This document shows positions 4,682 through 58,105 of a DNA stretch of 64,000 nucleotides, piece by piece; position 1 is the stretch's first letter; each line of letters begins with the position of its first letter. The translations under genes and the position numbers were made by a program. The notes under the pieces were generated by a model that saw nothing but the letters and a program-made list of their open reading frames with translations, made no database searches and was not told the DNA's origin. Origin of the DNA: an uncultured virus (IMG/VR IMGVR_UViG_3300010885_047555) (taxonomy: Duplodnaviria > Heunggongvirae > Uroviricota > Caudoviricetes); IMG/VR virus record IMGVR_UViG_3300010885_047555. The stretch is one strand, 5' to 3'.

Positions 4682-5533
4682 ATGTGCGCTAGTTGCGGCT
4701 GTGGATGCAAAAAAGGTAGTCCGGAAAAGGGTTGTAAATGCGATTGCAAAACCTGTGCTAATGCCAGAGAAGGTGCTAAGCATGAGTCTTCTGAAAGCAA
4801 ATCTTATGAAGGCAAAGAAAAAGAAGTAGAAAAAGCTTTTAAAGACGCTTCAGATATTCTTAAAGCTTATACTAATTCTCAATTAAAGCGCAAGCGCAAT
4901 ATTGGTCTTGGTGCTGCTGGGGTAGGAGCCTTAGGCGTTGCCGCCGGACGACCAATGGTGGACATGGTGCGTGCGCGCACACTACAGTCGGTGATGACTC
5001 CAGATGCAGCTAAACAAGCAAAATATATTAAATCCGCCGTTAGATATGCACATGGTGCTACTGGTCTCGGACTAGGCGGGGCTGCAATCGTTGCTGGTGG
5101 ACTTGCTCAGGCTGGTAAATCTCAAATACGCTTATCTCATAGAAATAGAAAAATGGACGTCACTAAGGCTGCCTTTTTTGCAGAAGATGTGGAAAAAGGT
5201 ATGCCGAATATCGCCGCAATGGGCGGACAATTAAAAGCTCTTGGTGGCGCCCTAAAAACTGGAGCAAAGGCTTTTGTGAGTGGTGCAAAAACTGGTGAAA
5301 AATTTGGTTCCGCTGGTGTTAAAAATGCCGTATCTCCATATGGCGTTGCTAACGCAGCTCAAAAGGTAAAGACTGCTGGTTTTAAAACTGGAAATGCTTA
5401 TGGCGCTGGTAAGAAATACGCCATGGCAAATCCTGGCAAGACTGCCGCAATGGGAGCCGGAGCCGGAGTAGTTGGTTACGGAGCAACAAAAATTAATAAG
5501 TCTGCAGTATCAGCGTTTGGCGTAGAACACTAA
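4682..5533 (+). CDS. putative internal head protein: Cys-rich N-terminus, basic Gly/Ala modules, C-terminal SAFGVEH
   Basis: 8 Cys in the first 25 aa; hydrophobic Gly-rich stretches flanked by K/R; located in the head module. Confidence 0.6.
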   Translation: MCASCGCGCKKGSPEKGCKCDCKTCANAREGAKHESSESKSYEGKEKEVEKAFKDASDILKAYTNSQLKRKRNIGLGAAGVGALGVAAGRPMVDMVRARTLQSVMTPDAAKQAKYIKSAVRYAHGATGLGLGGAAIVAGGLAQAGKSQIRLSHRNRKMDVTKAAFFAEDVEKGMPNIAAMGGQLKALGGALKTGAKAFVSGAKTGEKFGSAGVKNAVSPYGVANAAQKVKTAGFKTGNAYGAGKKYAMANPGKTAAMGAGAGVVGYGATKINKSAVSAFGVEH

Positions 5534-5535
5534 AA

Positions 5536-6282
5536 ATGTCAAAACAAATGACGCCTGAAGAACTTGCTAGACGCAAAAGAATTCAGGCACACCTTTCTGT
5601 CGCCGGAGGCACCCTTGGCTTAACCGCCCTGGGCGCTAAAGGCGCTGGATTGGCATTAGGACGCGCCGGTAAGGCCGTTCATGCTGTAAAGGCAGACAAA
5701 ACAGCTATTGGAATATTGACCGGCGGAGCTGGTCTTGGCGGTGTTGGAGCTTTTAATTTCGCCGCCACACAAAAAGCAGAGGCAGCCGGAGTGAAACCTA
5801 AAATGGTACTAGTCAAAAAAGCATACAATCCTGAACGAAATCGGGAGCGTAGAGCCAACGTTTATACGGGTGCGGCAATAGCGGGTACGGGTGCTGGAGT
5901 ATTAAGATCAGCCAAAGCATTTAATAGCGCAGGCGGCGTGGGACATCTGAAACTAGCAGGAGCTAGAAGAAAACAAGCTTCTGATTTTATTTCCAGGTCA
6001 AAGACAAGAACTGGCAAGACCGCCGCTGCAAATATTGCAAATGACACGAAAAAAGCTTCTGCTTTTAAAAACCTATCACGCTCGCATGTCGTTTCAGCCG
6101 GTAAAATTGTAAGGACAAGAGGAGTTCTAGTTCCTTTGGGGGCTTCTGCGGCTCTTGCCGGAACCGCCGGGGCTATTCAGCGTCAGAAAAAGAACAGCGG
6201 TCGCCCCTATAGCGGCTGGTACGACGGTAAGCAAAAACCAAAGTTTTCTCGTGTGGATAACACAACTGCAACAAGTAATTAA
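5536..6282 (+). CDS. basic Gly/Ala-rich protein with several hydrophobic segments (putative internal head/ejection protein)
   Basis: Composition, and position between protease and scaffold genes. Confidence 0.55.
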   Translation: MSKQMTPEELARRKRIQAHLSVAGGTLGLTALGAKGAGLALGRAGKAVHAVKADKTAIGILTGGAGLGGVGAFNFAATQKAEAAGVKPKMVLVKKAYNPERNRERRANVYTGAAIAGTGAGVLRSAKAFNSAGGVGHLKLAGARRKQASDFISRSKTRTGKTAAANIANDTKKASAFKNLSRSHVVSAGKIVRTRGVLVPLGASAALAGTAGAIQRQKKNSGRPYSGWYDGKQKPKFSRVDNTTATSN

Positions 6283-6352
6283 TTTCACTAAAAAACCTTA
6301 GCGTAATGTGAATTGCGTTATAGACAATAATATGTAATACAGGAGGCGAAAA

Positions 6353-7129
6353 GTGTCTAGGCGAGTAAAAGAACTAAGCAACATTGAAATTGATGAAATT
6401 TCTCTTGTTGACAAACCCGCAAACCAGCATGCCAAGGTGGCTATCGCCAAAAGGGCTCCCGAGGAGGAAACAGTGCCCGAAGAAATCTATGATGAGAACG
6501 GCAACTTTGTCGATATCGCATCTCTTCAAGAGGGTGACATCATTGTTGACGAAGAAGGTAACGAATACGTTTGGACATTCGAAGCTGACGACGAAGACGA
6601 AGAATCTCTCACTGAAGAATTAGAAGCAGTTGGCAAATCATTTGCTAACGACATCAGAGAAGAGCTATCAAAGGCTCTTACCGATATTGACCGCGATGAT
6701 GTAATCGCTAAATATGTTGGTGAAATTAGCAAGGCAGAAGCTCGTGCATACGAAGCAGAAAGCATCGCTAAAGCAGAGCGTACTTTGCGTCTTGAAAGAG
6801 AATACATCTCTAAGGCTGCAGAATACAATGTGCCAATCGCACCAGAAGATCTCGGTCCAGTTCTCATGCGCATGGCTGAAACCATGTCGTACGACGATTG
6901 CGCAGTTATCCACAAGGCTCTCACCGCTTCAGGTGAAATCCTTTGGGAAGAAGTTGGCTATCAGGGTCTCTCTGATAACTCAGACGTTTTCTCTCAGGTA
7001 GACGCTCTTGCCGGTGAATTTATCAGCAAAGCAAACAGTGGTATCAGCAAGCACGCAGCTGTTGCAGATCTGTTTTCGCATAATCCACGTGCATACGACG
7101 AGTACCTCGCTGAAAAGCGCGGATACTAA
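6353..7129 (+). CDS. capsid scaffolding protein with protease-like N-terminal strand
   Basis: AGGAGG RBS and GTG start; acidic helical protein upstream of decoration and major capsid genes; N-terminal IDEISLVDKPAN. Confidence 0.8.
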   Translation: MSRRVKELSNIEIDEISLVDKPANQHAKVAIAKRAPEEETVPEEIYDENGNFVDIASLQEGDIIVDEEGNEYVWTFEADDEDEESLTEELEAVGKSFANDIREELSKALTDIDRDDVIAKYVGEISKAEARAYEAESIAKAERTLRLEREYISKAAEYNVPIAPEDLGPVLMRMAETMSYDDCAVIHKALTASGEILWEEVGYQGLSDNSDVFSQVDALAGEFISKANSGISKHAAVADLFSHNPRAYDEYLAEKRGY

Positions 7130-7146
7130 GAAAGGATGTAAGTTAA

Positions 7147-7779
7147 ATGGCTTACGATGAGGGTCTACGGACTATCTCCCTGAATGCTGATGCTACATTA
7201 GCAGCCAGAACTGGATCGCCAACTGTCGTTGCGCTTACCGTCACCAACAAAGCACTTACTTCTAACGTTGCAACCTTGACTGTTAACGCAGCTCACGGTT
7301 TCTCTGTTGGTCAGCAAGTGGTTGTTGCGGGCGTTGACGCGACTTTCAATGGCATTCAGGTTGTCACCGCAGTTGGTTCTGCAGTGACTTTCACATACGC
7401 AAAAACGGCTACTAACGTTACTTCTGCTGCCGCGACTGGAACCGTAACTGGTACCGCTCCAAGCATCAAGGGTAATCAGTACCGCTTTGTCAAGGTTACC
7501 GGAGCTCATACTGTCGGTCTCGCTACTGACTCTGACAATGGTGCTTTAATCATTGGTGTTTTGCAGAATAAACCGCAGGTTACCGGTACTGCTGCTTCCG
7601 TTGCAATTGACGGTGTCAGCCTTATTGAAGCAGGCGCAACAATTGCCGCAGGTAATGCAGTAAAGGCTGACTCTCTTGGTCGCGCCGTTGCGGCAACCGT
7701 CGGTACCGACGTAGTAAGTGGTTTTGCATTGGCAGCAGCCTCTGTTGGACAACTTTTTCCCGTTAAACTACGGGTCTGA
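7147..7779 (+). CDS. head decoration / capsid cement protein with an inserted beta domain
   Basis: QYRFVKVTG..IIGVLQNKP..GVSLIEAGATIAAG.AVKADSLGRAV pattern; directly upstream of the major capsid gene. Confidence 0.7.
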   Translation: MAYDEGLRTISLNADATLAARTGSPTVVALTVTNKALTSNVATLTVNAAHGFSVGQQVVVAGVDATFNGIQVVTAVGSAVTFTYAKTATNVTSAAATGTVTGTAPSIKGNQYRFVKVTGAHTVGLATDSDNGALIIGVLQNKPQVTGTAASVAIDGVSLIEAGATIAAGNAVKADSLGRAVAATVGTDVVSGFALAAASVGQLFPVKLRV

Positions 7780-7802
7780 AGAAAGGTAAAGGAAAAGCTT
7801 AA

Positions 7803-8804
7803 ATGCCAACTCCATCACAATCCGATTTACATATTAATGCTCCCCTTACGAGCGTTTCGGTTGCTTACCTTCAGGATTCCGATGTCTTTATTGCGGACAA
7901 AGTTTTCCCAAAGGTTCCAGTTCAAAAGCAATCTGACCTCTACTGGAAGTATTCAAAGTCCGACTGGCGTCGTACTGACGTCCAGCGTCGCGCTCCATCT
8001 ACCGAGTCACCTGGTGTCGGTTGGAACGTAACTACGGATCAGTACTTTGCACACGTCTACGCTGTCCATAAGGATATCGACGATCAACTACGTGCAAACG
8101 CTGACTCTAACTTCAATCTCGATTCAGACTCAACCAAGTTCATCACAAATCAGCTTTTGCTGAAGCGTGACCTTGATTTTGCTGCAACCTACCTGCAAAC
8201 AGGTGTTTGGGCAACTGAATATACTGGTGTTTCTGCAAGCCCAACCGGCTCACAGTTCCTCCAGTGGAACAACGCTTCATCTGACCCAATCATGGCTATC
8301 AATAGCTGGATTGTAAGTTTCCGTCAGTTGACAGGTTTTGCTCCGAATATTCTTGTTCTCGGTGCTCTTACTTTCCAGACGTTGCGTCAGCATCCTCTGA
8401 TTGTTGATCGCATCAAGTACACCCAGCGCGGTATTGTTACTGAAGAATTGCTTGCAGCGTTGTTTGGTGTTCCAAAGATTGTCGTTTCATACGCAACCAA
8501 GGAAACATCTAGCGCACAGTATGGTGATTCAATCGTTCAGGACGCAAACGCATCATATGCATTCATCACCGACAGCAAGTCTGCAGCGTTGTTCTACGCT
8601 CCTCCTGCTGCTTCCCTGATGACTCCATCTGCAGGTTACATCTTTACCTGGAATGGTTACGCAGCTGGTAACGGCGAAGGCATCCGTGTCAAGAGTTTCC
8701 GTATGGAACATCTTGCATCAGATCGCATTGAAGCTGAAATGACTTACGACATGAAGGCAGTTGCTACCGACATGGGCGTATTCATTAACAGCGCAGTCGC
8801 ATAA
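7803..8804 (+). CDS. major capsid protein
   Basis: 333 aa; DLHINAPLTSVSVAY..FIADKVFPKVPVQKQSD.Y; strongly biased codon use; followed by a long hairpin. Confidence 0.9.
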   Translation: MPTPSQSDLHINAPLTSVSVAYLQDSDVFIADKVFPKVPVQKQSDLYWKYSKSDWRRTDVQRRAPSTESPGVGWNVTTDQYFAHVYAVHKDIDDQLRANADSNFNLDSDSTKFITNQLLLKRDLDFAATYLQTGVWATEYTGVSASPTGSQFLQWNNASSDPIMAINSWIVSFRQLTGFAPNILVLGALTFQTLRQHPLIVDRIKYTQRGIVTEELLAALFGVPKIVVSYATKETSSAQYGDSIVQDANASYAFITDSKSAALFYAPPAASLMTPSAGYIFTWNGYAAGNGEGIRVKSFRMEHLASDRIEAEMTYDMKAVATDMGVFINSAVA

Positions 8805-8817
8805 CGAACAAATAAGT

Positions 8818-8854
8818 CTAAGAGGTCGCTGTCACTTTTGGCGGCGACCTCTTA
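8818..8854 (+). terminator. hairpin after major capsid gene (terminator or mRNA stabiliser)
   Basis: ctaagaggtcgc...gcgacctcttag inverted repeat; U-tract is weak. Confidence 0.6.
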
Positions 8855-8871
8855 GTTTACATAGGAGAGAA

Positions 8872-9069
8872 ATGTATATTGCCCGCAGACCTATGCAAAT
8901 TGATGGAGAATGGCGCCAAATTGGAGAGCCAGTTCCAGAAGCCAATGAATGGCTACGTGTTGAGTCTTATGTTAATACAGGTTTTATCGTATGGGTTGAA
9001 GACCCAATCGAAGAAGTAATTATAGATACTCCGATTCCTGTTAAAAAAGTTGCTAAAAAATCCAAATAG
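8872..9069 (+). CDS. small virion-associated protein
   Basis: AGGAGA RBS before ATG 8872 (in frame with track ORF 8761); MYIARRPMQIDGEWRQIGEPVPEA. Confidence 0.65.
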   Translation: MYIARRPMQIDGEWRQIGEPVPEANEWLRVESYVNTGFIVWVEDPIEEVIIDTPIPVKKVAKKSK

Positions 9070-9098
9070 CGGAATGACCAGCGTTGGATAATGGAGTT

Positions 9099-10478
9099 AT
9101 GCCATTTAAATCCGAGCAGCAGAGACGTTATATGTTCTCGCAGCACCCAAATATCGCTAGTCGTTGGGTGAAAGAAGAAAAGGCTAAAGCCAAAAAGGAA
9201 AAGCGTGTGCCTAACTATGTAGTCGCCAAATCAGCGTTTGGTATCGAACACGCTGGCGAAGAAATTAACAAGGCTGGTTTTGGTAGTCTTTTGCGTCTCG
9301 GAGCTTCAGGAGAAAAAGGCGCTAATGCCGCTTTAAAGGGAACTCGCGAAGTAAAAGCTGTTCACGACATGCCAAATGTCGCAGCAAAGCCTAAAGATAT
9401 TTTAAGTAGCGTTAGAACCGCTCAAGCGCGTGCTAAATCAGTTCACCCGCCAATTGCTCTTGGTACGGGCAAAGAACTTGTTCCCTTTAAACCAGCTCCA
9501 TTTGTTGCAAAGCCACGTCCTGTAGGAATTAAGGGAACTGGGAATCCAGTTAAACCAAAAATTTCCTTACCATCAGCACCAAAACCAAAAGTTCCAGGTC
9601 GTGCATCTAGCGGTTTTACTGGTTTTAAATCTGGCATTAAAACTGGGGCAGTTCCAAATCCAACAAGAGCCGGAGTATCCAGTGGAAGACTCGCCCCACT
9701 CACGTCTAGTCAAAAGGCTACGCAATCTGGCGCAAAAGTTGGCGCTAAAGTTAGAAACGCACCAGCAGCAGCCAAAGGAAGACTTGTTGCTACCGGCAGA
9801 AACGTTTCCGCCAAGACAAAAGCTGTCGCAGGCAATGCTAAGGGCAAGCTTGTCTCCACTGGAAACAAGGCCAAGAATGGTGCTAAAGCGACAGCCGGAA
9901 AACTCGTTACGACTGGAAGAAACGCGAAACAGACTGCTAGCGCTAATATTAATGCCGTTAAAAGAGGCTACAACACGGCCGCGGCAGGCAAAGAGGGTGG
10001 ACTTCATGGCGCACTTCGAACTGGAGAAGCTTCTTCTTACCGTGCAGGATCGGCAGCAGGAAAAGCCAAGGGCAAAATGGTTTCAACTGGTTCGAAAGCT
10101 AAAGCAGGCGCGAAAGCCGCTCCAGGAAGATTAATGACTTCTGGTAGAAATGTTAAAACTACAGTTGGGGATAACGCACATGCCCTTAAAAGCGGCTACA
10201 GGATGGGTAGAACGGGTCAAGAAGGCGGTTTGCATGGAGCACTTAGGTCTGGCGTAAAGACGTCTGAAAAGGCCGGTAGAGGCGCTGGAAAGGCCGTTGC
10301 TACGCGTTCAGCTAATAAAGCCTCTAAAGTAAGAATTAAAGCAGTTCAAAATGGTCCAAAGTCTCAGGTTGCAAACAAAGATATTAATCCAGCCACTGCG
10401 GCACTCGCAGGCGGCGCTCTCGTTGGCGCTGGTGCGGGCGGAGCAGCATTAGTTAGTCGCCGACGCAAGGAACAATAA
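9099..10478 (+). CDS. very basic repetitive putative internal head protein with SAFGIEH motif and C-terminal hydrophobic segment
   Basis: Starts MPFKSEQQRRYMFSQHP; K/R/G/A-rich internal repeats; ends AALAGGALVGAGAGGAALVSRRRK. Confidence 0.65.
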   Translation: MPFKSEQQRRYMFSQHPNIASRWVKEEKAKAKKEKRVPNYVVAKSAFGIEHAGEEINKAGFGSLLRLGASGEKGANAALKGTREVKAVHDMPNVAAKPKDILSSVRTAQARAKSVHPPIALGTGKELVPFKPAPFVAKPRPVGIKGTGNPVKPKISLPSAPKPKVPGRASSGFTGFKSGIKTGAVPNPTRAGVSSGRLAPLTSSQKATQSGAKVGAKVRNAPAAAKGRLVATGRNVSAKTKAVAGNAKGKLVSTGNKAKNGAKATAGKLVTTGRNAKQTASANINAVKRGYNTAAAGKEGGLHGALRTGEASSYRAGSAAGKAKGKMVSTGSKAKAGAKAAPGRLMTSGRNVKTTVGDNAHALKSGYRMGRTGQEGGLHGALRSGVKTSEKAGRGAGKAVATRSANKASKVRIKAVQNGPKSQVANKDINPATAALAGGALVGAGAGGAALVSRRRKEQ

Positions 10479-10963
10479 TGCTATCTGCATTTGGAATTAA
10501 TCACGGTTTAATATCAAAAATGGATCCAGGTTCTACCGATATGCACGTAAATAGACCAATTGGTACCGCTAATAAATACGTTCAAACCATAAATACCGGA
10601 AATAAAAAGGTTCCTAAAAAAGCATACCCATTTCTTCATGCTTCCGTAGTTAGAGCTTACGATGATACTCGGGCACATAAAGTTAGGGCTGCTACAAAAC
10701 AAGCAGGAGCCGCCTCAATAGGTGGTGCCGCTGGAAGTTTAGCGGGTTTAACTGCAGTTTCACTGGCTGGTAAAAGAGTGCCAGCACTTAGAAATTCTTC
10801 CAAAATTCTAGGAAGAACGCTCACATCTGAAAGAAAAATTGGTCTAGCGGCAGGTGTTGGCGCTGGAGCCGTTGGTGGAACAGGTGGCGCAGCAGCAAAC
10901 TACTACGCGCTTGAAAACACCAAGAAAAATAAAAAATACAAATTTAGGAGTCATAATGGATAG
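10478..10963 (+). CDS. putative internal head protein with N-terminal SAFGINH motif and two Gly-zipper segments
   Basis: TAATG coupling to the upstream gene; MLSAFGINHGLISK. Confidence 0.6.
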   Translation: MLSAFGINHGLISKMDPGSTDMHVNRPIGTANKYVQTINTGNKKVPKKAYPFLHASVVRAYDDTRAHKVRAATKQAGAASIGGAAGSLAGLTAVSLAGKRVPALRNSSKILGRTLTSERKIGLAAGVGAGAVGGTGGAAANYYALENTKKNKKYKFRSHNG

Positions 10964-11168
10964 TCTTAATGTAAATGCTCTTAAGGATTACGCTTCATCT
11001 TTTGCGGCAATTCTTCTTACCTTCTTTGTCGCAAGCGGCGCAGATATTACAAAAATTCACGCAAACGATATTAAAGTGTGGATTGCGGCTGGTCTAGGAG
11101 CTGTTTTACCTCCAATTATTGCAGCTCTTGACAAGAAAAATCTACGTTACGGTCGCAAAGGCGCGTAA
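10956..11168 (+). CDS. small two-TM membrane protein, holin-like
   Basis: AGGAG RBS; two hydrophobic helices and basic tail (LDKKNLRYGRK). Confidence 0.5.
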   Translation: MDSLNVNALKDYASSFAAILLTFFVASGADITKIHANDIKVWIAAGLGAVLPPIIAALDKKNLRYGRKGA

Positions 11169-13010: not shown

Positions 13011-13037
13011 TGCAGTACCTTTCGCGGAGGTAAAAAT

Positions 13038-13817: not shown

Positions 13818-13835
13818 TAATAGGAGAAACTGCAG

Positions 13836-31560: not shown

Positions 31561-31806
31561 CTAGCGCTGGAAGAACGCTGGGATGATTTTTGATTTTCTT
31601 TCCGATTCTCCAAAGATAATCGGGTCTAATAGGTCGTCCTCGTCATAAACAACTAAGTCGTCATCAAGAAAACTAAAGATATTTTCAAGTTTTTTTGACA
31701 GTGTTTTAATTCCGAAGGTTGCCAGCCCTATTAAGGAGAAAACTCCAATGCTAATTGCAATTAAAGTTTTCTTATTGGTTGAGGTAGTCATATACCTGAC
31801 TTTCAT
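31561..31806 (-). CDS. small membrane protein
   Basis: One TM segment and acidic tail; start may be ATG 31791. Confidence 0.55.
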   Translation of the reverse strand: MKVRYMTTSTNKKTLIAISIGVFSLIGLATFGIKTLSKKLENIFSFLDDDLVVYDEDDLLDPIIFGESERKSKIIPAFFQR

Positions 31807-32194
31807 ACTCTGAGCACAGTGCGGTGGCAGCTGCGCCTATAACTAACCCTGCGTACCGATATTCTTCATCCGTGGTTAAGTTTCCGTTTGTCGCCATGTA
31901 TTCCACGACCATAGAAACTGTGTAACCCTGATCTAAAACATCACATACGTTGTGTCCTAAATTTATTAAATCTTTATTGCTAGTACCAGCGATAATAGAG
32001 TTATCAACCGAACGAACTCGGGTGATGTAATCGTCTTCTTCGGTAGATTGAGCGCTAAAAGGCGTTTCCATAATTGTTTCTACAGGAGCGCTTTTTGGTG
32101 CACTTGTCTTGCTACTACCACAACCCGTAAGGATTGTTGTGGCAGCAATTATTCCAAGCGTAAGCATCGCAATACGCTTTTTTGTTTTTTTCAT
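31772..32194 (-). CDS. DUF732-like lipoprotein
   Basis: Basic N-terminus, hydrophobic core and ILTG-C lipobox; LINLGHNVCDVLDQG...AATALC. Confidence 0.75.
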   Translation of the reverse strand: MKKTKKRIAMLTLGIIAATTILTGCGSSKTSAPKSAPVETIMETPFSAQSTEEDDYITRVRSVDNSIIAGTSNKDLINLGHNVCDVLDQGYTVSMVVEYMATNGNLTTDEEYRYAGLVIGAAATALCSEYESQVYDYLNQ

Positions 32195-32260
32195 GTGCTT
32201 TCCTTTCGTATATAGCGTTAAAGGCACCACCTGGATAGATGATGCCCTTAACGCGCTCCT

Positions 32261-43107: not shown

Positions 43108-45753
43108 GTGATTAAAATAAAAAGAAAATTACCAGTTTGGAACTTACACACTCATTCTAGATATTCTGCGAATGATGCGCTTCCAACTCCTAGAGATATT
43201 GTCAACGCCGTTGCAGATATGGGACAACCAGCAATTGGCCTTACTGACCACGGAAATATGGCTGGGTCAATCCAGCTGTACAACGCCGCGCAATCACGCG
43301 GAATAAAGCCGTTTCCTGGAACTGAACTTTACATTGTTGACGATAGGGAAAACACGAAAGCAAAACGTCATCACATGGGAATCGTTGCCTACACAACTGA
43401 AGGCTATAAAAATTTAGTTAAAATAAGTACCCTTAGCCATAAAAACTTCCACAACAAACCTTTATTGGACTTTTCAGATTTAGCAGGATTAAGCGAAGCT
43501 GGTCTAACGAAAGGGATTGCCGCTACTTCAGGTTGTTATTTCGGCTTTGTTTCTCAAGCTGTAGTCAAAGAAGATGAATCTGCTCTCAAAAGTTACTTGC
43601 ACAGTTTTAATAACTGGTTTGATAAATTTTATGTAGAACTACAAAATCACAACATTGAACAAAATGGTTGGACCGACGAAATGGTTTCTACCTACCTATG
43701 GGATGTCGCCAGAGAAATGGGACTTCCATGCATTCTGACACAAGATAGCCACTATATAAAGAAAGAAGATAGAAATGTCCATGAATCACTTAAACGAATG
43801 GTCGCATACGGATCAGACGCAGAAGATGCAGTCTTTCCAGGAGACGGATACCACCTTGCCGACGAACAATGGTTTCGAGACCACCATAAACCAGCCTTAT
43901 TCAATTCAGGGATCGAAGGACTCCGCGACCTCTTGGGTGCGCACGACCTTGAAATTCCAGAGCTAGATAACTATAAATATAGAATCCCGTTTACTACGGC
44001 AGACCCAGATACAGAACTGCGTACCACTTGTATTAAAAAGTTAGAATCGCTGGGTCTGCTCAAGGGAGAATATAAAGAAAGACTAGAAAGTGAATTTGAC
44101 ATTATTCTTGACACTGGAATGGCTGGATATTTACTTTTAGTAAAAGAAGTAACCGATTGGTGCAAAGATAATAAAATTTTTTATCAAGCAAGAGGGTCCG
44201 CATCGGGTTCAATTGTTTGTTGGATGCTGGGAATTACTCAAGTTGATCCCGTCAAGTGGAAGCTGCGTTTTGAGCGCTTTATTTCTAGAGACCGAACAAA
44301 GCCTCCAGATATTGATTTGGACGTTGAGCACCTTCGCAGACAAGAACTAATCGAATGGCTTGAAACTAGATTTTCGGTTAATCAAATTGGTACATGGCTA
44401 GAACATTCAATTACTGGAGACGATGAAGAATCTAAAGGGAGCCTCAGGGTTAGATACTACGCACGTCAAAAGATGAACGGTGTCACAAATCCAGTCCCGT
44501 GGAACAAAATTCCACAAGAAGATAGAGACATGCTAAAGCAAATCTCTCAGTTCTCTCCATACAACGCATATGGAACGCACGCTGCTGGTTTGGTTGTCAC
44601 TACAACTTCTGATGAATTTAACTCACTAGTACCACTAATGATGGTCGCATCTTCCAAAACCCTGGTTTCTCAATATGACATGGGAGACGTAGAAAAACTT
44701 GGCTTAGTCAAACTTGACGTACTTGGGCTTAAAACTCTTTCTATATTAAACAAAGCAATGATAAATTTGGATAAAGATCCGCTCGATGGTCTTGATTGGA
44801 TACCTTTAGACGATTCAAAAACCTTTACTGCAATATCTAAGGGAAGAACGGAAGGCGTGTTTCAGCTGGAAGGGATATCGGCCAAGTACGGTTGTATGGA
44901 ATTAAAGCCCAATAAAATTACCGATATTGTTGCAGCTATGGCTTTGTTCAGACCGGCAACTATGGATTCTGGTGCAACAAAAACTTATATTAAGCGCAAG
45001 CATAAAGAAGAAAGTATTCCTGAGATGCATCAAATCATTTCAAAAAATACAAAAGCCACTTATGGAATTATGCTTTTTCAAGAACAAGTCATATCTATTC
45101 TTAGAGACCTCGGAATGGACGCAGATAATTTAACGTCTTTTCTCAAGGCGGTAAAATCCTCTAATTCAGACATTGGGGATGCCGGCGGAGTAATTGCTGG
45201 ATACAAATCTCGCGTACAAGAAATGTCAGTTGAAAAAGGTATGAACGAAAACGATTTTGCGTGGTTATGGGAAGCAATCGAAGGTTTTGCGGCATACGGA
45301 TTTAATCAAGCACATTCGGTTGCGTATGGACTTACTGCTTATAGATGCGCATATCTAGCGCAAAACCATCCAATTGAGTTTTTTGCCGCGGTTTTATCCG
45401 TGGCCGCCGGAACCGATAAAGAGCAAAACTACATTGCCGCTGCTAGAAAGTATGGAGTAAGAATTTTATCCTCTGACGTTCAATATTCTGGCGTCACATA
45501 CACAGTGGACAAAAAAAGAAAATCAATCAGAAAAGGTTTATTATCAATTAAAGGAGTAGGCGAAAAGGCAGCGATAGAAATTATTAATGCCAGGCCAGAT
45601 GGTGGATGGAAAAATAAAGAAGATTTCGCCAGTACTGTTAGCCACAGAAAAGTTACTGGAATTAAAGCCTTAAAAGAAGGAGATTCAACAGTGGGAACAA
45701 TTGGCAAACTGCACGAATCTGGAGCGTTAGAGAGTTTGTATGAAGCCGTTTGA
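43108..45753 (+). CDS. dnaE: DNA polymerase III alpha subunit
   Basis: PHP motifs HTHS, TDHG, GTE and DSHY; RGSASGS; FERF; PDIDLD; KLDVLGLKTL; FQEQ; YGFNQAHS; HhH IKGVG. Confidence 0.97.
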   Translation: MIKIKRKLPVWNLHTHSRYSANDALPTPRDIVNAVADMGQPAIGLTDHGNMAGSIQLYNAAQSRGIKPFPGTELYIVDDRENTKAKRHHMGIVAYTTEGYKNLVKISTLSHKNFHNKPLLDFSDLAGLSEAGLTKGIAATSGCYFGFVSQAVVKEDESALKSYLHSFNNWFDKFYVELQNHNIEQNGWTDEMVSTYLWDVAREMGLPCILTQDSHYIKKEDRNVHESLKRMVAYGSDAEDAVFPGDGYHLADEQWFRDHHKPALFNSGIEGLRDLLGAHDLEIPELDNYKYRIPFTTADPDTELRTTCIKKLESLGLLKGEYKERLESEFDIILDTGMAGYLLLVKEVTDWCKDNKIFYQARGSASGSIVCWMLGITQVDPVKWKLRFERFISRDRTKPPDIDLDVEHLRRQELIEWLETRFSVNQIGTWLEHSITGDDEESKGSLRVRYYARQKMNGVTNPVPWNKIPQEDRDMLKQISQFSPYNAYGTHAAGLVVTTTSDEFNSLVPLMMVASSKTLVSQYDMGDVEKLGLVKLDVLGLKTLSILNKAMINLDKDPLDGLDWIPLDDSKTFTAISKGRTEGVFQLEGISAKYGCMELKPNKITDIVAAMALFRPATMDSGATKTYIKRKHKEESIPEMHQIISKNTKATYGIMLFQEQVISILRDLGMDADNLTSFLKAVKSSNSDIGDAGGVIAGYKSRVQEMSVEKGMNENDFAWLWEAIEGFAAYGFNQAHSVAYGLTAYRCAYLAQNHPIEFFAAVLSVAAGTDKEQNYIAAARKYGVRILSSDVQYSGVTYTVDKKRKSIRKGLLSIKGVGEKAAIEIINARPDGGWKNKEDFASTVSHRKVTGIKALKEGDSTVGTIGKLHESGALESLYEAV

Positions 45754-46829: not shown

Positions 46830-46837
46830 GAATTTAG

Positions 46838-48648: not shown

Positions 48649-48649
48649 A

Positions 48650-49171: not shown

Positions 49172-49228
49172 GAAGGTTTAGTAATCTTTATGTAGCCAAG
49201 CTCACAAAACTACGTAGAGAGAGCACTA

Positions 49229-49525: not shown

Positions 49526-49527
49526 CC

Positions 49528-50963: not shown

Positions 50964-51421
50964 TTGTCTGGGGAGCAGATTTGGGAGTCAGATCAGTTTA
51001 CCTGTGTAAATGGGAAGACGGAAAGGTCGACCACACCTTTTACAATATCAAAAAACCAAAAGATAGATGGAAAGAACTTCAAGAAATTACTCTAATGATT
51101 AAAAATACAATCAAAGGAGATTTATTATTTGTTGAAGAACCTGTGGTCGCTGGAGTAAGAAACTTAAGAACTTCACTAAAAATTGCGCAAAACGCTGGCG
51201 CGGTGTTTGCTGGAAGCGGTATTCCTGCTACATTTGTCCCAGTTTCCTCTTGGAAAAAAGAAATAGTCGGAAAAGGTAACGCTAAAAAAGAAGAAATAGC
51301 AGAGTTCTTAAAAATAAAACATAATGAAATGTGGGCAAATTGCAATGAAGACCAAAATCTTATCGACGCCACTTGCGTTGCCTTATACGGAGTCAGTGAA
51401 TGCCAGAAAAAAGATGGGTAA
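50960..51421 (+). CDS. ruvC: RuvC-like Holliday junction resolvase
   Basis: GADLG, VEE, WKK..VGKGNAKKE, D.N..DA. Confidence 0.85.
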   Translation: MIVWGADLGVRSVYLCKWEDGKVDHTFYNIKKPKDRWKELQEITLMIKNTIKGDLLFVEEPVVAGVRNLRTSLKIAQNAGAVFAGSGIPATFVPVSSWKKEIVGKGNAKKEEIAEFLKIKHNEMWANCNEDQNLIDATCVALYGVSECQKKDG

Positions 51422-51891
51422 ACGCAGAGGAGTTTCTGCGCAATACCAGCGATGACGATTCTGACTTTTTTGAGCCAGAAGACACGGTTGACCGAGAAGA
51501 ACTCAAAGATGTCTTAACGCGATATTTAGAGCTTTTAACTCCGGAATGGCACAAAAAAGCCGCATGCGTTGGAATGGACGACAGCATATTTTTTGGCAAT
51601 AAAGACATCGAAGTAAGACCAGCGCTTACTGTTTCAGAAATTAGATACGCAAAATCAATTTGCCTTAGTTGCGAAGCAATTTCTGATTGCTTTAATCACG
51701 CTATCACGTCTCGAGAGCGTTATGGTATTTGGGCTGGAATATCCGGTAGAACGAGAGCTAGAATTTTTGCGCTAATTGATTCGGGACAAATTACTGAAAA
51801 AGAAATCCTTAAAGAATTTAAAGATGGAAAAATAGATAAATACGAAAAGGTAAAAACTTCAATAGTGGACATATATGACGAAGAAGAATAA
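51400..51891 (+). CDS. whiB: WhiB-family Fe-S transcription factor with acidic N-terminal extension
   Basis: W...AAC......FF...AKSICLSC....DC...A.....RYGIWAG. Confidence 0.9.
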   Translation: MPEKRWVNAEEFLRNTSDDDSDFFEPEDTVDREELKDVLTRYLELLTPEWHKKAACVGMDDSIFFGNKDIEVRPALTVSEIRYAKSICLSCEAISDCFNHAITSRERYGIWAGISGRTRARIFALIDSGQITEKEILKEFKDGKIDKYEKVKTSIVDIYDEEE

Positions 51892-52333: not shown

Positions 52334-52409
52334 TCACATAAAGAATAATAGAGTTGGTTAGGTCTGGCTCTTGTGGGCAAAGTCAGGCCTAACCCTTTTA
52401 GGAGTATAA

Positions 52410-53102
52410 ATGCCGAGCAATAGTACGCCTCGTATCGGCCAGCGCCCAAGCACTTCAGGCATTAGCCTTCCTGCCGGCGTTATCACATTCGTAGATGCAA
52501 CAAATAATACTATTAATTTTATTACGCAAAATGGGCAATATATTTCTGGTGTAAAAGTCCTAGGAAGCAATGTCCCATATGTTATTGGACAACACATTGT
52601 CTATGCGAACGATACTGCTGGAAATACCGTTGTGCTTGGAACGTGGGACTCACAACAAAAAATAAATACTCAGTTATACGCATCCGTCTATAGAGGCACT
52701 GGAGCTACAGCACAAAACACCACTACTTCGGGTTCTGGTACTACAGTTAACTTCAATCTAGTTACCTCTGACGCATATTCCATGTGGAGCACAGCAAATA
52801 ATGAATTTACCGTTCCAGTAACTGGTATTTATAATTTAAATTGTTGCGTAGCCTTCGATAGTGCTGTTAACTCAACTGGATATAGAGCGGTATATATCAA
52901 TGTATCTGGAAGCAATCAGGCGCTCAATAGAGTTGCAACTGCGCCAGCGGTTGATACATATATGAATTTATCTACAACATGCAAAATGTTGGCTGGGGAA
53001 AAAGCGCATGTGTCGGCCGTAAGTTCAACGGCAGTGGTAATTCCTATCCCAACAGGCGGAAACTTAGTAAACTTCACTATCAGTTACATCGGGCCCGCAT
53101 AA
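52410..53102 (+). CDS. virion protein with C1q/TNF-like C-terminal domain
   Basis: VNFN.V.SD...MWST..NEFTVPVTGIYNL...V.F pattern. Confidence 0.6.
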   Translation: MPSNSTPRIGQRPSTSGISLPAGVITFVDATNNTINFITQNGQYISGVKVLGSNVPYVIGQHIVYANDTAGNTVVLGTWDSQQKINTQLYASVYRGTGATAQNTTTSGSGTTVNFNLVTSDAYSMWSTANNEFTVPVTGIYNLNCCVAFDSAVNSTGYRAVYINVSGSNQALNRVATAPAVDTYMNLSTTCKMLAGEKAHVSAVSSTAVVIPIPTGGNLVNFTISYIGPA

Positions 53103-54613
53103 TGGCTAAGTTCGTTCTCTCGCGCCTACCAGAGACGGACGACGAGCTTTGGCACGTTGTTCACGCAATGTGGGGTGTCACAATCCCGAGACATAAGGTT
53201 TGTCCAGATCATGTAGCTCCCTTTGATGCCTTTGCGGATGCTTACTTCGGCAGGGACGGAACCATTAGCTTGTGGCACGGCAGCCGAGGACTATCCGGAA
53301 AATCATTTACTCTATCAATTCTTGGACTAACAAAAGCCTTTTTATTGGGAGCTGACTGTAACCTACTGGGAGGGTCATTAGCTCAATCTGCCAACATTCA
53401 CAACGCCATGCGTGATGCGCTTGACTCAGAAAATGCCCCTAGAGACATGCTTACAATGGAATCTAAAACTGAGGTTAAGGTTACCAACGGGGCAAAGATT
53501 AGACCGCTAACTGCTTCACAAAAGACAGTGCGTGGCCCTCACCCTCCATTTCTGCTTCTAGATGAAATAGACGAAATGGATATTTCAATCCTCGATGCCG
53601 CTTTGGGCCAGCCAATGCCTCAAAAGAACTATCTCGGGGAAATCATTCAACCGTACACCGTTCTATGTTCAACTTGGCAGAATCCTGTAGGAACGTTCAC
53701 AGAGATAAAGAGACGCTTTGAAGAGCGTGGATTACCTGCCAAAACGTGGTGCTGGCGGGAATCAGCTAATCCCATTGATGGATGGCTCTCAATGGAAACA
53801 GTAGAACAAAAACGTCGGGAAATCCCTGCAGAAATGTGGAGAGTTGAATACGAATTAGGTGAACCATCTATTGGTAACCGTGCATTTGATTCTGACGCCA
53901 TCGAAAAGACATTCTGTTTGCCACTTGAGCCTATTTACGAAAAAACAGCCAAAGACTTCGAGGAGTACACCTTCGAAGGGCCAATGCCAGGTGGTGAGTA
54001 TGTTGCAGGTGCTGACTGGGCAAAAGAGCGAGACTATACAGTCATTGCTGTCATGCGTATAGATGTTCAACCATATCGTCTTGTTTACTATATGCGAGTA
54101 AACCGAAGACCGTATCCAATGATGGTGGGGTGGTTCAATACAGCCATTCAGATTTATAATGCTGACGCTATCCATGATGGCACTGGTCTTGGAAACGTAG
54201 TAAACGACTATCTAGATTTAAGAGCCAGATCATTCCTGATGACAGGTAAAAATAGAGATGACATGCTGTCCGAGTATGTTTCAGCAATTGAGCGTGGCGA
54301 GTTTGAGCTACCAAAGGTTCTTACCCTGTACACTGCACACAAATACGCTCAGGTTGGAGATCTTTATCGTGGAGGACAATCATTCCATTTACCAGACGAA
54401 GTGTGTGCTCTAGCATTATGTAACAGATTGATAACTAAAAGAATTCCGGCAGTTACAATTCTTGGTGTTCCTAAAAATGGAGAGCCGAGTAAGTATGCAA
54501 AAGATTTAGATCCACCAAAAAATAATCAAAGTGATGGAATTATTAGCATGGGTGAAGGTGAAGTTCGAGTTAAAACAGATAGAGACGGAAACAGTTTCAC
54601 CCTAATGGTATGA
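53102..54613 (+). CDS. terminase large subunit
   Basis: GSRGLSGKS Walker A variant, LLLDEIDE, GADWAK..DYTV, DGTGLG, HLPDEV; likely start ATG 53102 (TAATG). Confidence 0.92.
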   Translation: MAKFVLSRLPETDDELWHVVHAMWGVTIPRHKVCPDHVAPFDAFADAYFGRDGTISLWHGSRGLSGKSFTLSILGLTKAFLLGADCNLLGGSLAQSANIHNAMRDALDSENAPRDMLTMESKTEVKVTNGAKIRPLTASQKTVRGPHPPFLLLDEIDEMDISILDAALGQPMPQKNYLGEIIQPYTVLCSTWQNPVGTFTEIKRRFEERGLPAKTWCWRESANPIDGWLSMETVEQKRREIPAEMWRVEYELGEPSIGNRAFDSDAIEKTFCLPLEPIYEKTAKDFEEYTFEGPMPGGEYVAGADWAKERDYTVIAVMRIDVQPYRLVYYMRVNRRPYPMMVGWFNTAIQIYNADAIHDGTGLGNVVNDYLDLRARSFLMTGKNRDDMLSEYVSAIERGEFELPKVLTLYTAHKYAQVGDLYRGGQSFHLPDEVCALALCNRLITKRIPAVTILGVPKNGEPSKYAKDLDPPKNNQSDGIISMGEGEVRVKTDRDGNSFTLMV

Positions 54614-54662
54614 CACATCGTGGATAATAAGTATGAGAATGCTATGCCTATAGGAGTATTAA

Positions 54663-56297
54663 ATGTCCGTTAGCGGAGAATTTCTTGCCAATATCACGGA
54701 CACAGCTCTGCCTGGAGACGGTATCCCACAGAACGTCAATCCAATGGCCGAACTCGGTATCACGGGTCTTAGACGCTTTTCCGGTTATGTTGATGAAGAA
54801 TTCCTACCACAACTGCGTGGTCGTAAAGCCGTACAGGTTTACAAAGAAATGGCAGACAACGACCCAATCGTGGGAGCGTTGTTATTTGCTATTGATCGCC
54901 TTGTACGTCAAGTAGAGTGGCGCGTAGAGCCGGCATCTGGCTCCGTGGAGGCTAAAGCAGCAGCCAAGTTCGTTGAAGAGTGCATGGAAGATATGTCTCA
55001 TACTTGGGACGACTTTATTGCCGAAGTAGCTACCATGAACATTTATGGTTGGTCATGGCACGAAATCGTATATAAGCGCCGTGTAGGTATGTGGGAAACA
55101 GACCCCAAGAAGCGTTCAAGATTCTCAGATAACAAAATTGGCTGGCGCAAGATGCCTATCCGCGCACAAGAAACGTGGCTGCGCTGGGTATTTGATGAAT
55201 CTGGTGGCGTAAAAGCGTTAGTACAGCTTGCCCCACCGCACTACAAATTGGTAGTTATCCCAATCGAGAAGTCTCTTTTGTTCCGTACTACGGTAACAAA
55301 GAACAACCCAGAGGGCAGATCCCTACTGCGTAACGCTTACCGCCCGTGGTACATGAAGAAACGCCTTGAGGAAATTGAAGGTATTGGTGTAGAACGTGAC
55401 CTTGCCGGTCTTCCAGTAGCAAAGGTTCCTGCCGCGTATTTGAATGCCAAACCAGGTTCTGACCAAGCAAAGATGGTTGATGCATTTCGGAAGATGGTTC
55501 GCTCTGTACGTAGAGATGAACAAGAAGGCATCATCCTCCCACAAGCATTTGACCAAGACACCAACCAGCCGTTATTTGGATTTGAGCTCCTGACCTCGGG
55601 TGGCGGGCGCTCATTTAATACTAACGAGATTATCCAAAGATATGAGCAAAGAATGCTTATGTCTGTATTGGCCGACTTCATCATGGTAGGCCATTCGGGC
55701 ACTGGTTCATATGCCCTCCATACGGACAAGACAGGCCTTTTCAGGGCCTCAATGAACTCCATCACCCGTTCTATTGCCAACACCCTAAATAGACACGCTA
55801 TACCACGTCTATTCGCCATTAACGGGTGGAAGACTGACGAGCTACCTAAGTTTGTACCTGGAGACATCGATCCACCAGATTTGGGTCAATTGTCGCAGTT
55901 TATGACCTCTATGACTTCAGCCGGAGCGAACTGGTTCCCAGATGAGCAACTAGAGAAGTTCTTGCGCAATGCTGCACGCCTACCAGAGATGGGCTCGGAC
56001 GAAGAAAAGGTCAAGGAAGAGATGACCCGACAGAGTCTCATTATTCAGCAGGCAAAGCAGCAGCTTGAAGCCCTACAACTACAGCAACAAGCACAACAGG
56101 GAATCATGTCTACCCAGACACAAGAACTCGGTCTGCAACAACAACAGCAGGCAGCCGCACAAACACCAGAACAACGGGCAAATCAAGCGGCAAAAGATGA
56201 CGAAAACCATTCTTTGCAGTCACAAAAGCAGCAACTAGATATTGAAGCACAGAAGAAGGAAATGTCTAAGACCGCCCCTAGCGACAAGAAGAAGTAA
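54663..56297 (+). CDS. portal protein (Mu gp29/DUF935-like) with Gln-rich tail
   Basis: YKEM..NDP.VG, YGWSWHEIVYK, NPEGRSLLRNAYRPW..K, GVERDLAGLP. Confidence 0.92.
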   Translation: MSVSGEFLANITDTALPGDGIPQNVNPMAELGITGLRRFSGYVDEEFLPQLRGRKAVQVYKEMADNDPIVGALLFAIDRLVRQVEWRVEPASGSVEAKAAAKFVEECMEDMSHTWDDFIAEVATMNIYGWSWHEIVYKRRVGMWETDPKKRSRFSDNKIGWRKMPIRAQETWLRWVFDESGGVKALVQLAPPHYKLVVIPIEKSLLFRTTVTKNNPEGRSLLRNAYRPWYMKKRLEEIEGIGVERDLAGLPVAKVPAAYLNAKPGSDQAKMVDAFRKMVRSVRRDEQEGIILPQAFDQDTNQPLFGFELLTSGGGRSFNTNEIIQRYEQRMLMSVLADFIMVGHSGTGSYALHTDKTGLFRASMNSITRSIANTLNRHAIPRLFAINGWKTDELPKFVPGDIDPPDLGQLSQFMTSMTSAGANWFPDEQLEKFLRNAARLPEMGSDEEKVKEEMTRQSLIIQQAKQQLEALQLQQQAQQGIMSTQTQELGLQQQQQAAAQTPEQRANQAAKDDENHSLQSQKQQLDIEAQKKEMSKTAPSDKKK

Positions 56298-57512
56298 ATG
56301 ATTAGTGCCTTTGGGATAGAACATGGCGTAGCAATTGTAAAGGCTGAGCGTTATGACCCTAAAAAACATAAAGTACTGAAGCCTGGTTATCATTTAATGG
56401 TCGAAGATCATGGGGCCAACAAAGGGGCTAGACGCACTAAAACTGTTTTAGCGGATAATGAATTACGCAATTACAACTTAAACAGGGCCGTTAGCACTTA
56501 TGAGCAAAAAATACAGCGTAAGGTTACTAAGCCTGAATTTGAAATGCTAAGACGCGAACAAATAAAGGGAATTTGGCGCCCAAATCATCATACCTCTAGG
56601 AACAGTTCTTCTACAGGTATAGACAGAGAAAACGTAAACGGAATTAATGACACTAGCAGCAATTACGACACTAAACGTTTTTGGACCGACAAAGAAAGAA
56701 TTGATAGGGATCAAAAGCTAAGAGCGGCACTTAAAACACGTCGTAAAAAGATTGTAAAGTCGTTTTTATCTGTAAACGGTCCAGACATGGGAACTTCTAA
56801 GCCAATTACGTCAATGTCTACAAACGAGCGCGCTAACTTGCGTTCGAGCCTTATAAGACAAACGGATGCACGTAAACAGAAGAAAATCTTTACCGGTCCG
56901 TTGAAAAGGCCATTTGACGCGTCTAAACGACCTAATGAAGTATCTGAACAATTTAAAAATCGTTCGCGGGTAAAACGTACAGAGGCAAGAGAACTGCATT
57001 TGTCACAAAAACCAGCAGAAGCCGTAGAGGTTCTACAAAGAGCTAAGTTTGCACCATCAAAAAGTCAAATGCTTAAAATTGGTTTGAGTTCTGCTATTGC
57101 TAGCGGAGCGGCAAGAGAACTAAAAAGGCGTCACAGCGTTTCTAAGGCTATGAACAAGAATAGAAGAGTAGACGCTGGTATCGGAGCTGCTGGAGGCGCA
57201 AGCGCCATGGTGGCGGCAAATGAAGTAGGCGGATGGGCAGCAAAACGCTCAATTGAGTCCTATAGACATAAGAACTGGGACAACAAGGTACATAATCCAA
57301 TCTGGTCAGAACACAGAAAGAAATACGGTGTTGAACAGGCAAAAAGTGGAAAAGTTCCGCTGGAGTTTTTTGAGAAGTATCCAAAGGCATTGCCTGGCAG
57401 TAAGGCAACGAGAATTCTAGCAATTAAAAACAGACCGAGCGTAGCCACTGCAAGTATCACAAGCGCTGCAGCACTAGGAGCAGCGTTAGCTTCGAGGAGA
57501 AAAACCAAATGA
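56298..57512 (+). CDS. basic modular putative internal head protein, N-terminal SAFGIEH
   Basis: MISAFGIEHGVAIVK; modules end in a hydrophobic segment plus basic residues. Confidence 0.6.
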   Translation: MISAFGIEHGVAIVKAERYDPKKHKVLKPGYHLMVEDHGANKGARRTKTVLADNELRNYNLNRAVSTYEQKIQRKVTKPEFEMLRREQIKGIWRPNHHTSRNSSSTGIDRENVNGINDTSSNYDTKRFWTDKERIDRDQKLRAALKTRRKKIVKSFLSVNGPDMGTSKPITSMSTNERANLRSSLIRQTDARKQKKIFTGPLKRPFDASKRPNEVSEQFKNRSRVKRTEARELHLSQKPAEAVEVLQRAKFAPSKSQMLKIGLSSAIASGAARELKRRHSVSKAMNKNRRVDAGIGAAGGASAMVAANEVGGWAAKRSIESYRHKNWDNKVHNPIWSEHRKKYGVEQAKSGKVPLEFFEKYPKALPGSKATRILAIKNRPSVATASITSAAALGAALASRRKTK

Positions 57513-58105
57513 TTAGTCCGTTTGGGGTAGAACACGGTGGAATATATAAAGCCAAAGATCCATGCTGGGACGGTTACAAACAAGAAGGCATGAAGAATAA
57601 GGGCGGAAGATTAGTCCCCAATTGCATTCCAAAAACAAAGAAGGTTTCTAAATCCTGGCAAACTAAGGATGGCAAGAACCCAAAAGGTGGTCTCAACGAA
57701 AAGGGTCGCAAGTCGTACGAGCGAGAGAACCCGGGTTCAAACCTAAAGCCACCAGTAAAGGCCGGAAACAATCCTAGAAGGTCCTCATTCCTTGCCCGTA
57801 TGGGTAACATGCCGGGACCAGAACATAAACCTAATGGTGAGCCTACGAGACTCCTATTATCGTTGCAGGCATGGGGAGCTTCGTCTAAAGCAGATGCAAA
57901 AAGAAAAGCAGCAGCAATATCCAAAGGTTTTATTCCACCAGAACCAATAAGAAAATTACCTACGCACGCAATTGTCAATGGACGTAAATTCAGAGTTTCT
58001 CACATAGAAAACGATTGGGTGTATGTACATGACGAAAATGGAGTAATGGGGCATCATAGAAGCCGCGTTATATTTCCTAAAACAAGAAAGCCAAAACAGC
58101 CTTAA
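57509..58105 (+). CDS. modular putative internal head protein: SPFGVEH, CWDGY..PNC module and DUF6321-like module
   Basis: PCWDGYKQEGMKNKGGRLVPNCIP; GKNPKGGLNEKGR...RRSSFLARM...TRLLLSLQAWG. Confidence 0.7.
   Translation: MISPFGVEHGGIYKAKDPCWDGYKQEGMKNKGGRLVPNCIPKTKKVSKSWQTKDGKNPKGGLNEKGRKSYERENPGSNLKPPVKAGNNPRRSSFLARMGNMPGPEHKPNGEPTRLLLSLQAWGASSKADAKRKAAAISKGFIPPEPIRKLPTHAIVNGRKFRVSHIENDWVYVHDENGVMGHHRSRVIFPKTRKPKQP

Follow-up and report, generated by a model that had tools for sequence, protein, structure and literature searches.

How a tailed phage chooses the extra proteins of its capsid is, to our knowledge, largely unknown outside of T4 and the giant phages. The question is raised here by a 64,000-nucleotide stretch of DNA from an uncultured virus of the Caudoviricetes (IMG/VR record IMGVR_UViG_3300010885_047555; the whole stretch is referred to as the window), in which five proteins of the head module carry a seven-residue peptide of the type SAFGIEH, referred to as the tag. 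On balance, it is probable that this tag is the core of a bipartite, position-independent, and removable address label for internal head proteins, comparable to the capsid-targeting sequence (CTS) of T4 and cut by an XkdF-type protease.

The tag and its lysine site

Scanned in all six frames for FG[IV].H, the window gave exactly five matches, all on the plus strand and all in long open reading frames (ORFs). None were expected by chance: 200 shuffles gave a mean of 0 matches, and the amino acid composition of the long ORFs (18,877 residues) predicts 0.0011 tags. The tag is real and lies far beyond chance. The copies, three N-terminal, one C-terminal, and one internal, and the lysine sites next to them are as follows.

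5510-5530, plus strand: tag copy 1, SAFGVEH, the last 7 residues of carrier c283 (ORF 4682-5533)
5492-5500, plus strand: INK site upstream of tag 1, where the cargo lies, with a putative protease cut after K
9231-9251, plus strand: tag copy 2, SAFGIEH, internal, at residue 45 of carrier c464 counted from the ATG at 9099
9222-9230, plus strand: VAK site directly upstream of tag 2
9264-9272, plus strand: INK site downstream of tag 2, which is thus fenced on both sides
10484-10504, plus strand: tag copy 3, SAFGINH, at residue 3 of carrier c161
10511-10519, plus strand: ISK site after tag 3
56304-56324, plus strand: tag copy 4, SAFGIEH, at residue 3 of carrier c404
56334-56342, plus strand: IVK site after tag 4
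57515-57535, plus strand: tag copy 5, SPFGVEH, at residue 3 of carrier c198
57542-57550, plus strand: IYK site after tag 5

The ATG at 9099 is the start used by relatives, which conserve the module beginning MPFKS, and tag 2 therefore begins at residue 45. With the tags masked, the best pairwise blastp match among the five carriers had an E value of 0.47. A preliminary description of this DNA had listed the five copies, had placed three of them at residue 3 (ORFs 10478-10963, 56298-57512, and 57509-58105), and had found no other evident homology among the carriers, all of which agrees with the scan, the ORFs, and the masked comparison. Its remark that the copies are flanked by I-x-K is the most informative part of that observation, and all of the flanks that it listed were present on re-check.

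The lysine site proved to be a regular companion of the tag. When 60 N-terminal tags of different carrier families were aligned, M1, S3, F5, G6, H9, and one lysine were invariant, with a variable loop between the histidine and the lysine site. Hydrophobic-x-Lys was counted within 10 residues of each tag, with random positions drawn from the same proteins for comparison.

Downstream of N-terminal tags: 166/167 with hydrophobic-x-Lys
Upstream of C-terminal tags: 21/22
Downstream of internal matches: 14/24
Upstream of internal matches: 17/24
Random positions, downstream: 74/873 (background about 9%)
Random positions, upstream: 80/873 (background about 9%)

Part of the internal matches are chance matches. 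A logo built from one carrier per family reads G/E-E-I/V-S-K, with A, G, or S next. The site always lies between the core and the cargo, be the cargo N- or C-terminal to the core, as would be expected of a release site. Since the core is found on either side of the site at a variable distance, it is not part of one extended protease motif; because it lies outside active-site recognition, it would be a separate docking element.

To follow the tag into relatives, the major capsid protein (MCP) was searched against IMG/VR, which gave 211 related stretches, of which 80 were kept; one of these (L005) was the same phage and was dropped, leaving 79 loci in addition to the window. In this set, the pattern x[AP]FG[IV].H had 70 matches, all of them on the head-gene strand and in ORFs, spread over 23 of the 79 loci plus the window; by position, these matches, which were ascertained with the pattern itself, comprised 39 N-terminal, 16 C-terminal, and 15 internal copies. 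Variants extend this range: S.WG[VI][DE]HG, with W for F, in eight further loci, KSAFGVE[LF] in L045, and DAFGVDR in L050 and L057. The W-type copies ranked at the top among the nonstrict matches of a hidden Markov model (HMM) of the tag. A degenerate DNA pattern for M-x-S-A-F-G-[IV]-[DE]-H-G, scanned over viral contigs, identified at least 162 stretches, and many contigs had two to five copies. A homolog of a window head protein was encoded in 73 of the 75 pattern loci of at least 4 kb, and the remaining 2 are distant parts of one contig whose head module sits elsewhere.

The same DNA pattern had 11 single matches in prokaryote genomes (596 Gb, 185,579 species genomes), which is about chance level; none of the 11 was accompanied by a lysine site or head-gene homologs, and no prophage copy was found by the tag pattern. 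Among the closest portal relatives, no tag was found in the whole record of faecal phage MT835491.1 or in the first 32.6 kb of Arthrobacter phage Shrooms. There was likewise none in 41 kb around the head genes of Rhizobium phage RHph_Y52, the closest cultured MCP relative (46% identity), other cultured relatives not having been scanned.

Over 234 distinct DNA contexts, the serine of the tag was encoded by AGY in 132 and by TCN in 102, with all six serine codons in use, and alanine and glycine each drew on all four of their codons. This free synonymous variation indicates that selection acts on the peptide, the level at which the tag had been said to be conserved. The tag is also portable. The scans yielded 262 distinct carrier ORFs, and the 210 complete ones fell into 104 families by single linkage (blastp E < 1e-4, tag masked); in the largest family, the tag is N-terminal in 20 members, C-terminal in 18, and internal in 12. 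The scan that gave the at least 162 stretches selected N-terminal tags, so that the excess of N-type carriers is partly a matter of ascertainment. Both the portability and the fenced architecture are solid.

Carriers are mostly small, very basic, and Gly/Ala rich, and many end in a Gly-rich hydrophobic segment and a basic tail; weak Gly-zipper matches occur among those with Gly-rich ends. Five of 208 carriers had a Pfam family, namely DUF6321 (twice, once below the curated cutoff), MuF, HNH_3, and GNAT. A small tagged GNAT acetyltransferase-like protein is encoded at L151:2375-2728, and a profile search added three tagged GNAT-like proteins (P0014, P0027, and P0043). The seven members of carrier family 2 (L107:4903-5664, L126, L129, L135, L082, L086, and L087) contain an HExxH motif by eye and had no Pfam match. 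Some tagged carriers thus look like enzymes.

Proposed loading and cleavage, and competing explanations

In the proposed mechanism, the core S-A-F-G-[V/I]-[D/E]-H would serve as a docking element and bring proteins that are otherwise unrelated, most of them small and very basic, into the procapsid during assembly, with the capsid shell, the protease, the scaffold, or the portal as candidate receptors. Between core and cargo, a loop of 0 to 8 residues leads to the site (G/E)-E-[I/V]-S-K plus A, G, or S, and the XkdF-type maturation protease would cut there and free the cargo from the label. This site follows N-terminal tags, precedes C-terminal ones, and flanks internal ones on both sides; sites of this type are also where the scaffold would be degraded by the protease. 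The preliminary description had proposed an independent, portable address label that loads cargo and is then removed. What stands of this as observation is a portable element, conserved at the peptide level, on unrelated head-module proteins of phages with an XkdF protease and fenced by hydrophobic-x-Lys; packaging, cutting, and the protease as the cutter are what we infer from these sequences. The proteins involved are encoded as follows.

728-2986, plus strand: MuF minor head protein (PF04233)
1760-2002, plus strand: eight degenerate tag-like S/T-[APV]-F repeats in MuF, about 8 to 10 residues apart
2994-4229, plus strand: head maturation protease, with a basic Gly/Ala-rich N-terminal part of 280 residues and then an XkdF-type domain (PF14550, residues 281-408)
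6353-7129, plus strand: acidic scaffold (isoelectric point [pI] 4.3)
7803-8804, plus strand: MCP (phrog_1005, E 1.4e-85), a candidate receptor

The XkdF domain scored 68.3 bits against a curated cutoff of 24, and the scaffold and MCP are encoded downstream of it. In the window scaffold, 11 of 14 lysines stand in hydrophobic-x-Lys, compared with 4.1 expected (z 4.3), mostly as I-S/A-K-A and including GEISKA and an invariant VGK followed by S (6629-6640). Among 40 scaffold homologs, which are not independent of one another, [IVL][SA]K was observed 257 times versus 18.7 expected. Hydrophobic-x-Lys occurred 165 times in cargo bodies, counted as one per family, versus 245.7 expected (z -6.1), and 266 times in MuF homologs versus 326 expected. 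Carrier c464 has 3 such sites among 57 lysines, compared with 10.4 expected, and two of the 3 fence its tag. Enrichment in the scaffold and depletion in the cargo form the pattern expected if the protease degrades the former and spares the latter, and hydrophobic-x-Lys can be read as a putative cleavage code of the maturation protease, under which the scaffold would be cut up, the cargo spared, and the tags clipped.

The same observations could be accommodated if the motif as a whole were a processing signal only, which made its carriers substrates of the head protease for propeptide removal or enzyme activation, loading being achieved through charge or Gly-rich segments. The lysine site always adjoins the core, the protease's own junction (described below) is tag-like by eye, and untagged cargo-like proteins in the window and in tag-less clades indicate that loading may not need the tag. 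We nevertheless hold this explanation to be unlikely, since a tag recognized solely for its own removal explains nothing, since a core on either side of the cut at variable distance is unlike a single extended cleavage motif, and since the many ISKA sites of the scaffold, which have no core, would make the core needless for cutting.

About 12 residues ahead of the XkdF domain, all of the protease ORFs contain hydrophobic-x-Lys-(S/D/N); the first strand of the domain has the sequence E-[IF]-[SA]-K-x-D. In the window, this junction, VAKSDSGMTWKGEISKVD (3798-3851), resembles the tag by eye (compare VAKSAFGIEHAGEEINKAG), and in an AF2 model of the protease of low confidence (mean predicted local distance difference test score [pLDDT], 54) it forms a single strand, residues 276-286. 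No protease junction was found among the 45 best nontag matches of the tag HMM. A derivation of the tag from the junction, a likeness by eye without HMM support, was accordingly set aside and is kept only as a lead.

Degenerate forms of the tag occur as well in MuF and the scaffold, both known components of the head interior. In addition to the repeats in the window MuF, the MuF of L038 has KSAFG and KSAFS repeats and that of L014 has AKSAFGVVHK, and the scaffolds of several relatives have VGKSAFF at the invariant lysine. There seems to be a docking element common to proteins that must be inside the procapsid. A complex prediction of the N-terminal 40 residues of a tagged protein with three partners (MCP, protease domain, and the N terminus of the scaffold) gave 0.00, 0.52, and 0.00 in its runs, without controls, and speaks neither for nor against any receptor.

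The eight MuF repeats and the VGKSAFF of scaffolds would also suit a cohesive sticker, in which the aromatic core (SAF, SAFG, or S.WG) provided weak multivalent contacts among cargo, MuF, and scaffold, and disordered basic proteins co-condensed with the acidic scaffold without a dedicated receptor. That the carriers are of low complexity, very basic, and Gly/Ala rich while the scaffold is acidic fits this idea. The seven-residue core, however, with its invariant S, F, G, and H and its fixed spacing, is stricter than a generic sticker, and most carriers have a single copy, so that we give the sticker slightly less credence than a pure processing signal.

A role after assembly, as a signal for ejection or translocation through portal and tail or for a host-directed step such as membrane insertion of Gly-zipper proteins, is improbable. 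Many carriers do end in Gly-rich hydrophobic segments with weak Gly-zipper matches, as membrane-active ejection proteins might, but a tag cut off at maturation could not act later, and both its presence in the scaffold and its genomic placement point to assembly. Least credible of all is that the peptide has no function and marks either a recombination linker acting on DNA at the borders of genes or the conserved end of diverged paralogs of a single family: of the five copies, four lie at gene junctions, and the carriers are alike in composition, but the tags are N-terminal, C-terminal, and internal, and the synonymous codon variation, the 104 masked families, and the dissimilarity of the five masked window carriers already contradict it.

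Several points weigh against the address-label reading itself. Amphipathic helices, and not cut sites, could underlie the enrichment of I-S/A-K-A in the scaffold, the 40 scaffolds behind this enrichment are related to one another, and we know of no cleavage specificity for XkdF-type proteases. Position 6 of the core (D/E) varies, and the strict start of N-terminal tags at residue 3 is a feature for which this reading does not account. No Pfam family was matched by 203 of the 208 carriers (57/60 and 146/148), so that Pfam families say little of what would be loaded. Similar cargo-like proteins without a tag are present in a sister clade of 17 loci and in three further MuF-bearing loci, and in the window the cargo-like protein p248, the N-terminal domain of the protease, and a ferritin-like protein are likewise untagged. 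The tag is therefore not the sole route into the head, if it is a route at all.

The sister clade (L010, L011, L015 to L019, L023, L025, L032, L033, L037, L040, L041, L047, L051, and L055) has 63 to 70% MCP identity to the window and lacks both SAFG tags and MuF; a protein of 760 to 1000 residues beginning ..RWW.. stands in the place of MuF. Its cargo-like proteins end in ...RNQPWT, ...NKPAW, or ...KRDPWS (...N-Q/K/D-P-W-x), which is possibly a different terminal label; three proteins of this clade that were scanned with Pfam had no matches. By locus, tag and MuF occurred together in 48 cases, neither occurred in 17, MuF alone occurred in 3, and the tag alone occurred in 0. The 17 tag-less, MuF-less loci form one clade on the MCP tree, so that this co-occurrence counts as a single event, and a search for the receptor by phylogenetic profile was uninformative.

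If the address-label reading is taken further, this large, uncultured lineage of siphophages, probably actinobacterial, might use the seven-residue peptide and its lysine cut site as a general-purpose, position-independent, and excisable means of loading a fast-evolving arsenal into the capsid, to be co-injected along with the DNA. The arsenal would comprise more than 100 families, among them GNAT acetyltransferases, HExxH metalloprotease-like proteins, Cys-rich metal-binding peptides, and Gly-zipper proteins; the label might have been copied from the N-terminal junction of the protease, with the protease or scaffold as the loading adaptor. This extension is tentative, and we rather doubt it in its entirety. 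Should the label be what it appears to be, the repertoire of injected proteins in a lineage that metagenomes alone have revealed could be read directly from sequence, and a first cleavage motif would be available for XkdF-type head proteases. Foreign proteins could also be packaged into HK97-fold capsids by means of a very small tag placed at either of their ends, and the selection of cargo via shell, scaffold, or protease would become testable.

The head module and its carriers

Proteins of the window are encoded on contigs as long as 65,125 nt, which indicates that the window is nearly the whole of a genome of about 65 kb and that what had been described as two head gene clusters is a single module that the ends of the window divide; the five tag copies do all lie in it. 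The remaining features of this module are listed here, with the carriers last.

52979-54613: large terminase
54663-56297, plus strand: Mu-type portal (PF06074, E 2.1e-34), with tagged genes directly after it
4247-4681: ferritin/Dps-like protein (PF00210, E 2.8e-17)
5536-6282: cargo-like p248, without tag
7147-7779: decoration-like protein
4682-5533, plus strand: carrier c283, with a Cys-rich N-terminal module (MCASCGCGCK...), a Gly/Ala-rich basic body (pI 9.9), and the C-terminal tag
9099-10478 (ORF 9084/9099-10478), plus strand: carrier c464, with a 44-residue N-terminal module (MPFKSEQQRRYMF...), the tag, and a basic body
10478-10963, plus strand: carrier c161, with the tag, a basic linker, a Gly-rich hydrophobic segment, and a basic tail
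56298-57512, plus strand: carrier c404, basic (pI 10.7), its gene directly 3' of the portal gene
57509-58105, plus strand: carrier c198, with a DUF6321 domain (PF19846, E 7.8e-25)

Within the head module, tagged genes occupy only three places: behind the portal gene, in the interval from protease to scaffold, and behind the MCP gene. The genome also encodes connectors, a tail tube protein, and a 1593-residue tape measure protein, together with a replication module of DnaB, primase, and DNA polymerase III (Pol III) alpha. As judged by the Pfam and PHROG assignments of the tail tube and tape measure proteins, the phage is siphovirus-like. WhiB (E 3e-17), DUF732, and the Pol III alpha subunit are encoded at 51400-51891, 31772-32230, and 43108-45753, respectively; the guanine-plus-cytosine (GC) content is 42.8%, and the nearest portal relatives are Arthrobacter phages, with 47% identity. 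WhiB, DUF732, and the likeness of the portal to those of Arthrobacter phages point to an actinobacterial host; WhiB, DUF732, and the Pol III alpha subunit, at this GC content, suggest a phage of low-GC actinobacteria.

Neither c283 nor c404 matched any Pfam or PHROG family, and no paper on DUF6321 was found in open-access full text. The body of c464, about 400 residues long, is rich in Gly, Ala, and Lys (pI 11.4) and has a Gly-rich hydrophobic segment at its end. Its N-terminal module (9099-9230) matched no Pfam family and is common to the N termini of proteins in L016, L062, L072, L082, L089, and L099, with 56 to 70% identity over about 23 residues. The build of c161 is that of carrier family 1 in relatives, which has 20 members.

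The Cys-rich module of c283 (MCASCGCGCKKG...CKCDCKTC; 4682-4780) recurs at the N termini of otherwise different head-module proteins in L015, L017, L018, L019, L032, L034, and L007, in the last of these upstream of an internal tag, and may be a second portable module, perhaps metal binding. The ferritin-like ORF and that of c283 share a reading frame and are separated by one TAA (4679-4684), and in a fusion protein encoded at L007:5236-6153, a V-S-K site joins a ferritin domain to a Gly/Ala-rich module resembling p248. The start of the scaffold, IEIDEISLVDKPANQHA (6353-6451), matches the middle of a protease-scaffold PHROG (phrog_3270), and every relative has cargo genes between protease and scaffold; an ancestral gene for protease and scaffold appears to have been split where the cargo genes now sit.

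Two further groups of genes lie in the head module. A collagen-repeat fiber-like protein (PF01391, E 2.7e-17) and other fiber-like ORFs (61906-63828 and 52410-53102) are found between the portal region and MuF and may encode head fibers. A protein of 1138 residues (58141-61557) is conserved across the group at 28 to 67% identity; it is untagged and belongs to no Pfam or PHROG family.

Comparison with known systems

No description of the tag was found in open-access full text, where the related work returned concerned T4 and giant phages only; none of the four tag 7-mers was printed there, and the ten 5-mer matches were unrelated. This agrees with the preliminary description, to whose author no earlier account in siphoviruses of this type was known.

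The T4 CTS was reportedly described by Mullaney and Black in 1996 (cited in PMC10052503). It is not known to occur elsewhere than at the N terminus. According to one account of T4, its internal proteins (IPI to IPIII and Alt) are diverse, with one short conserved peptide in common and an adjoining site for the head protease gp21; they make up a small, basic cargo that has enzymes among it (PMC3012670). The likeness to the tag lies in a short peptide as the sole common part of diverse internal head proteins, an adjacent head-protease site, and small basic cargo, and the analogy drawn at the outset with the T4 CTS holds in this architecture of a shared peptide with a likely protease site beside it. 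No relation in sequence is apparent, the T4 peptide itself not having been aligned. Unlike the CTS, the tag is also C-terminal and internal, and the putative cut follows lysine, whereas in T4 it follows glutamate. The protease here is of the XkdF type (PF14550) and not of the gp21 type, in a siphovirus-like actinophage lineage known so far from its sequences.

The giant phages SPN3US and phiKZ offer a second parallel: N-terminal propeptides of their head proteins are cut by gp245/gp175 at A-X-E, and targeting of proteins into the prohead has been suggested as the role of these propeptides (PMC10052503). As in the window, many head and ejection proteins are described there with removable terminal segments and a three-residue cut motif. 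As that source presents them, however, these propeptides are 20 to 254 residues long and have no single peptide in common, the motif ends in glutamate, and the phages are myoviruses with T4-like proteases.

Encapsulin cargo-loading peptides are short and terminal, are found on unrelated cargo, including ferritin-like proteins, and bind the inside of an HK97-fold shell; they are not known to be cleaved off. Short peptides on unrelated cargo are thus common to both systems, and a ferritin-like gene lies in this head module. The difference is that the phage of the window is a complete one, which encodes a portal, a terminase, a tail tube, and a tape measure, and that its ferritin-like ORF has no tag. 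MuF-domain proteins (SPP1 gp7 type) provide another route for extra proteins into the capsid, and the MuF encoded here contains tag-like repeats. In MuF-toxin fusions, the cargo is fused covalently to MuF, whereas here the cargo genes are separate and have a short peptide in common.

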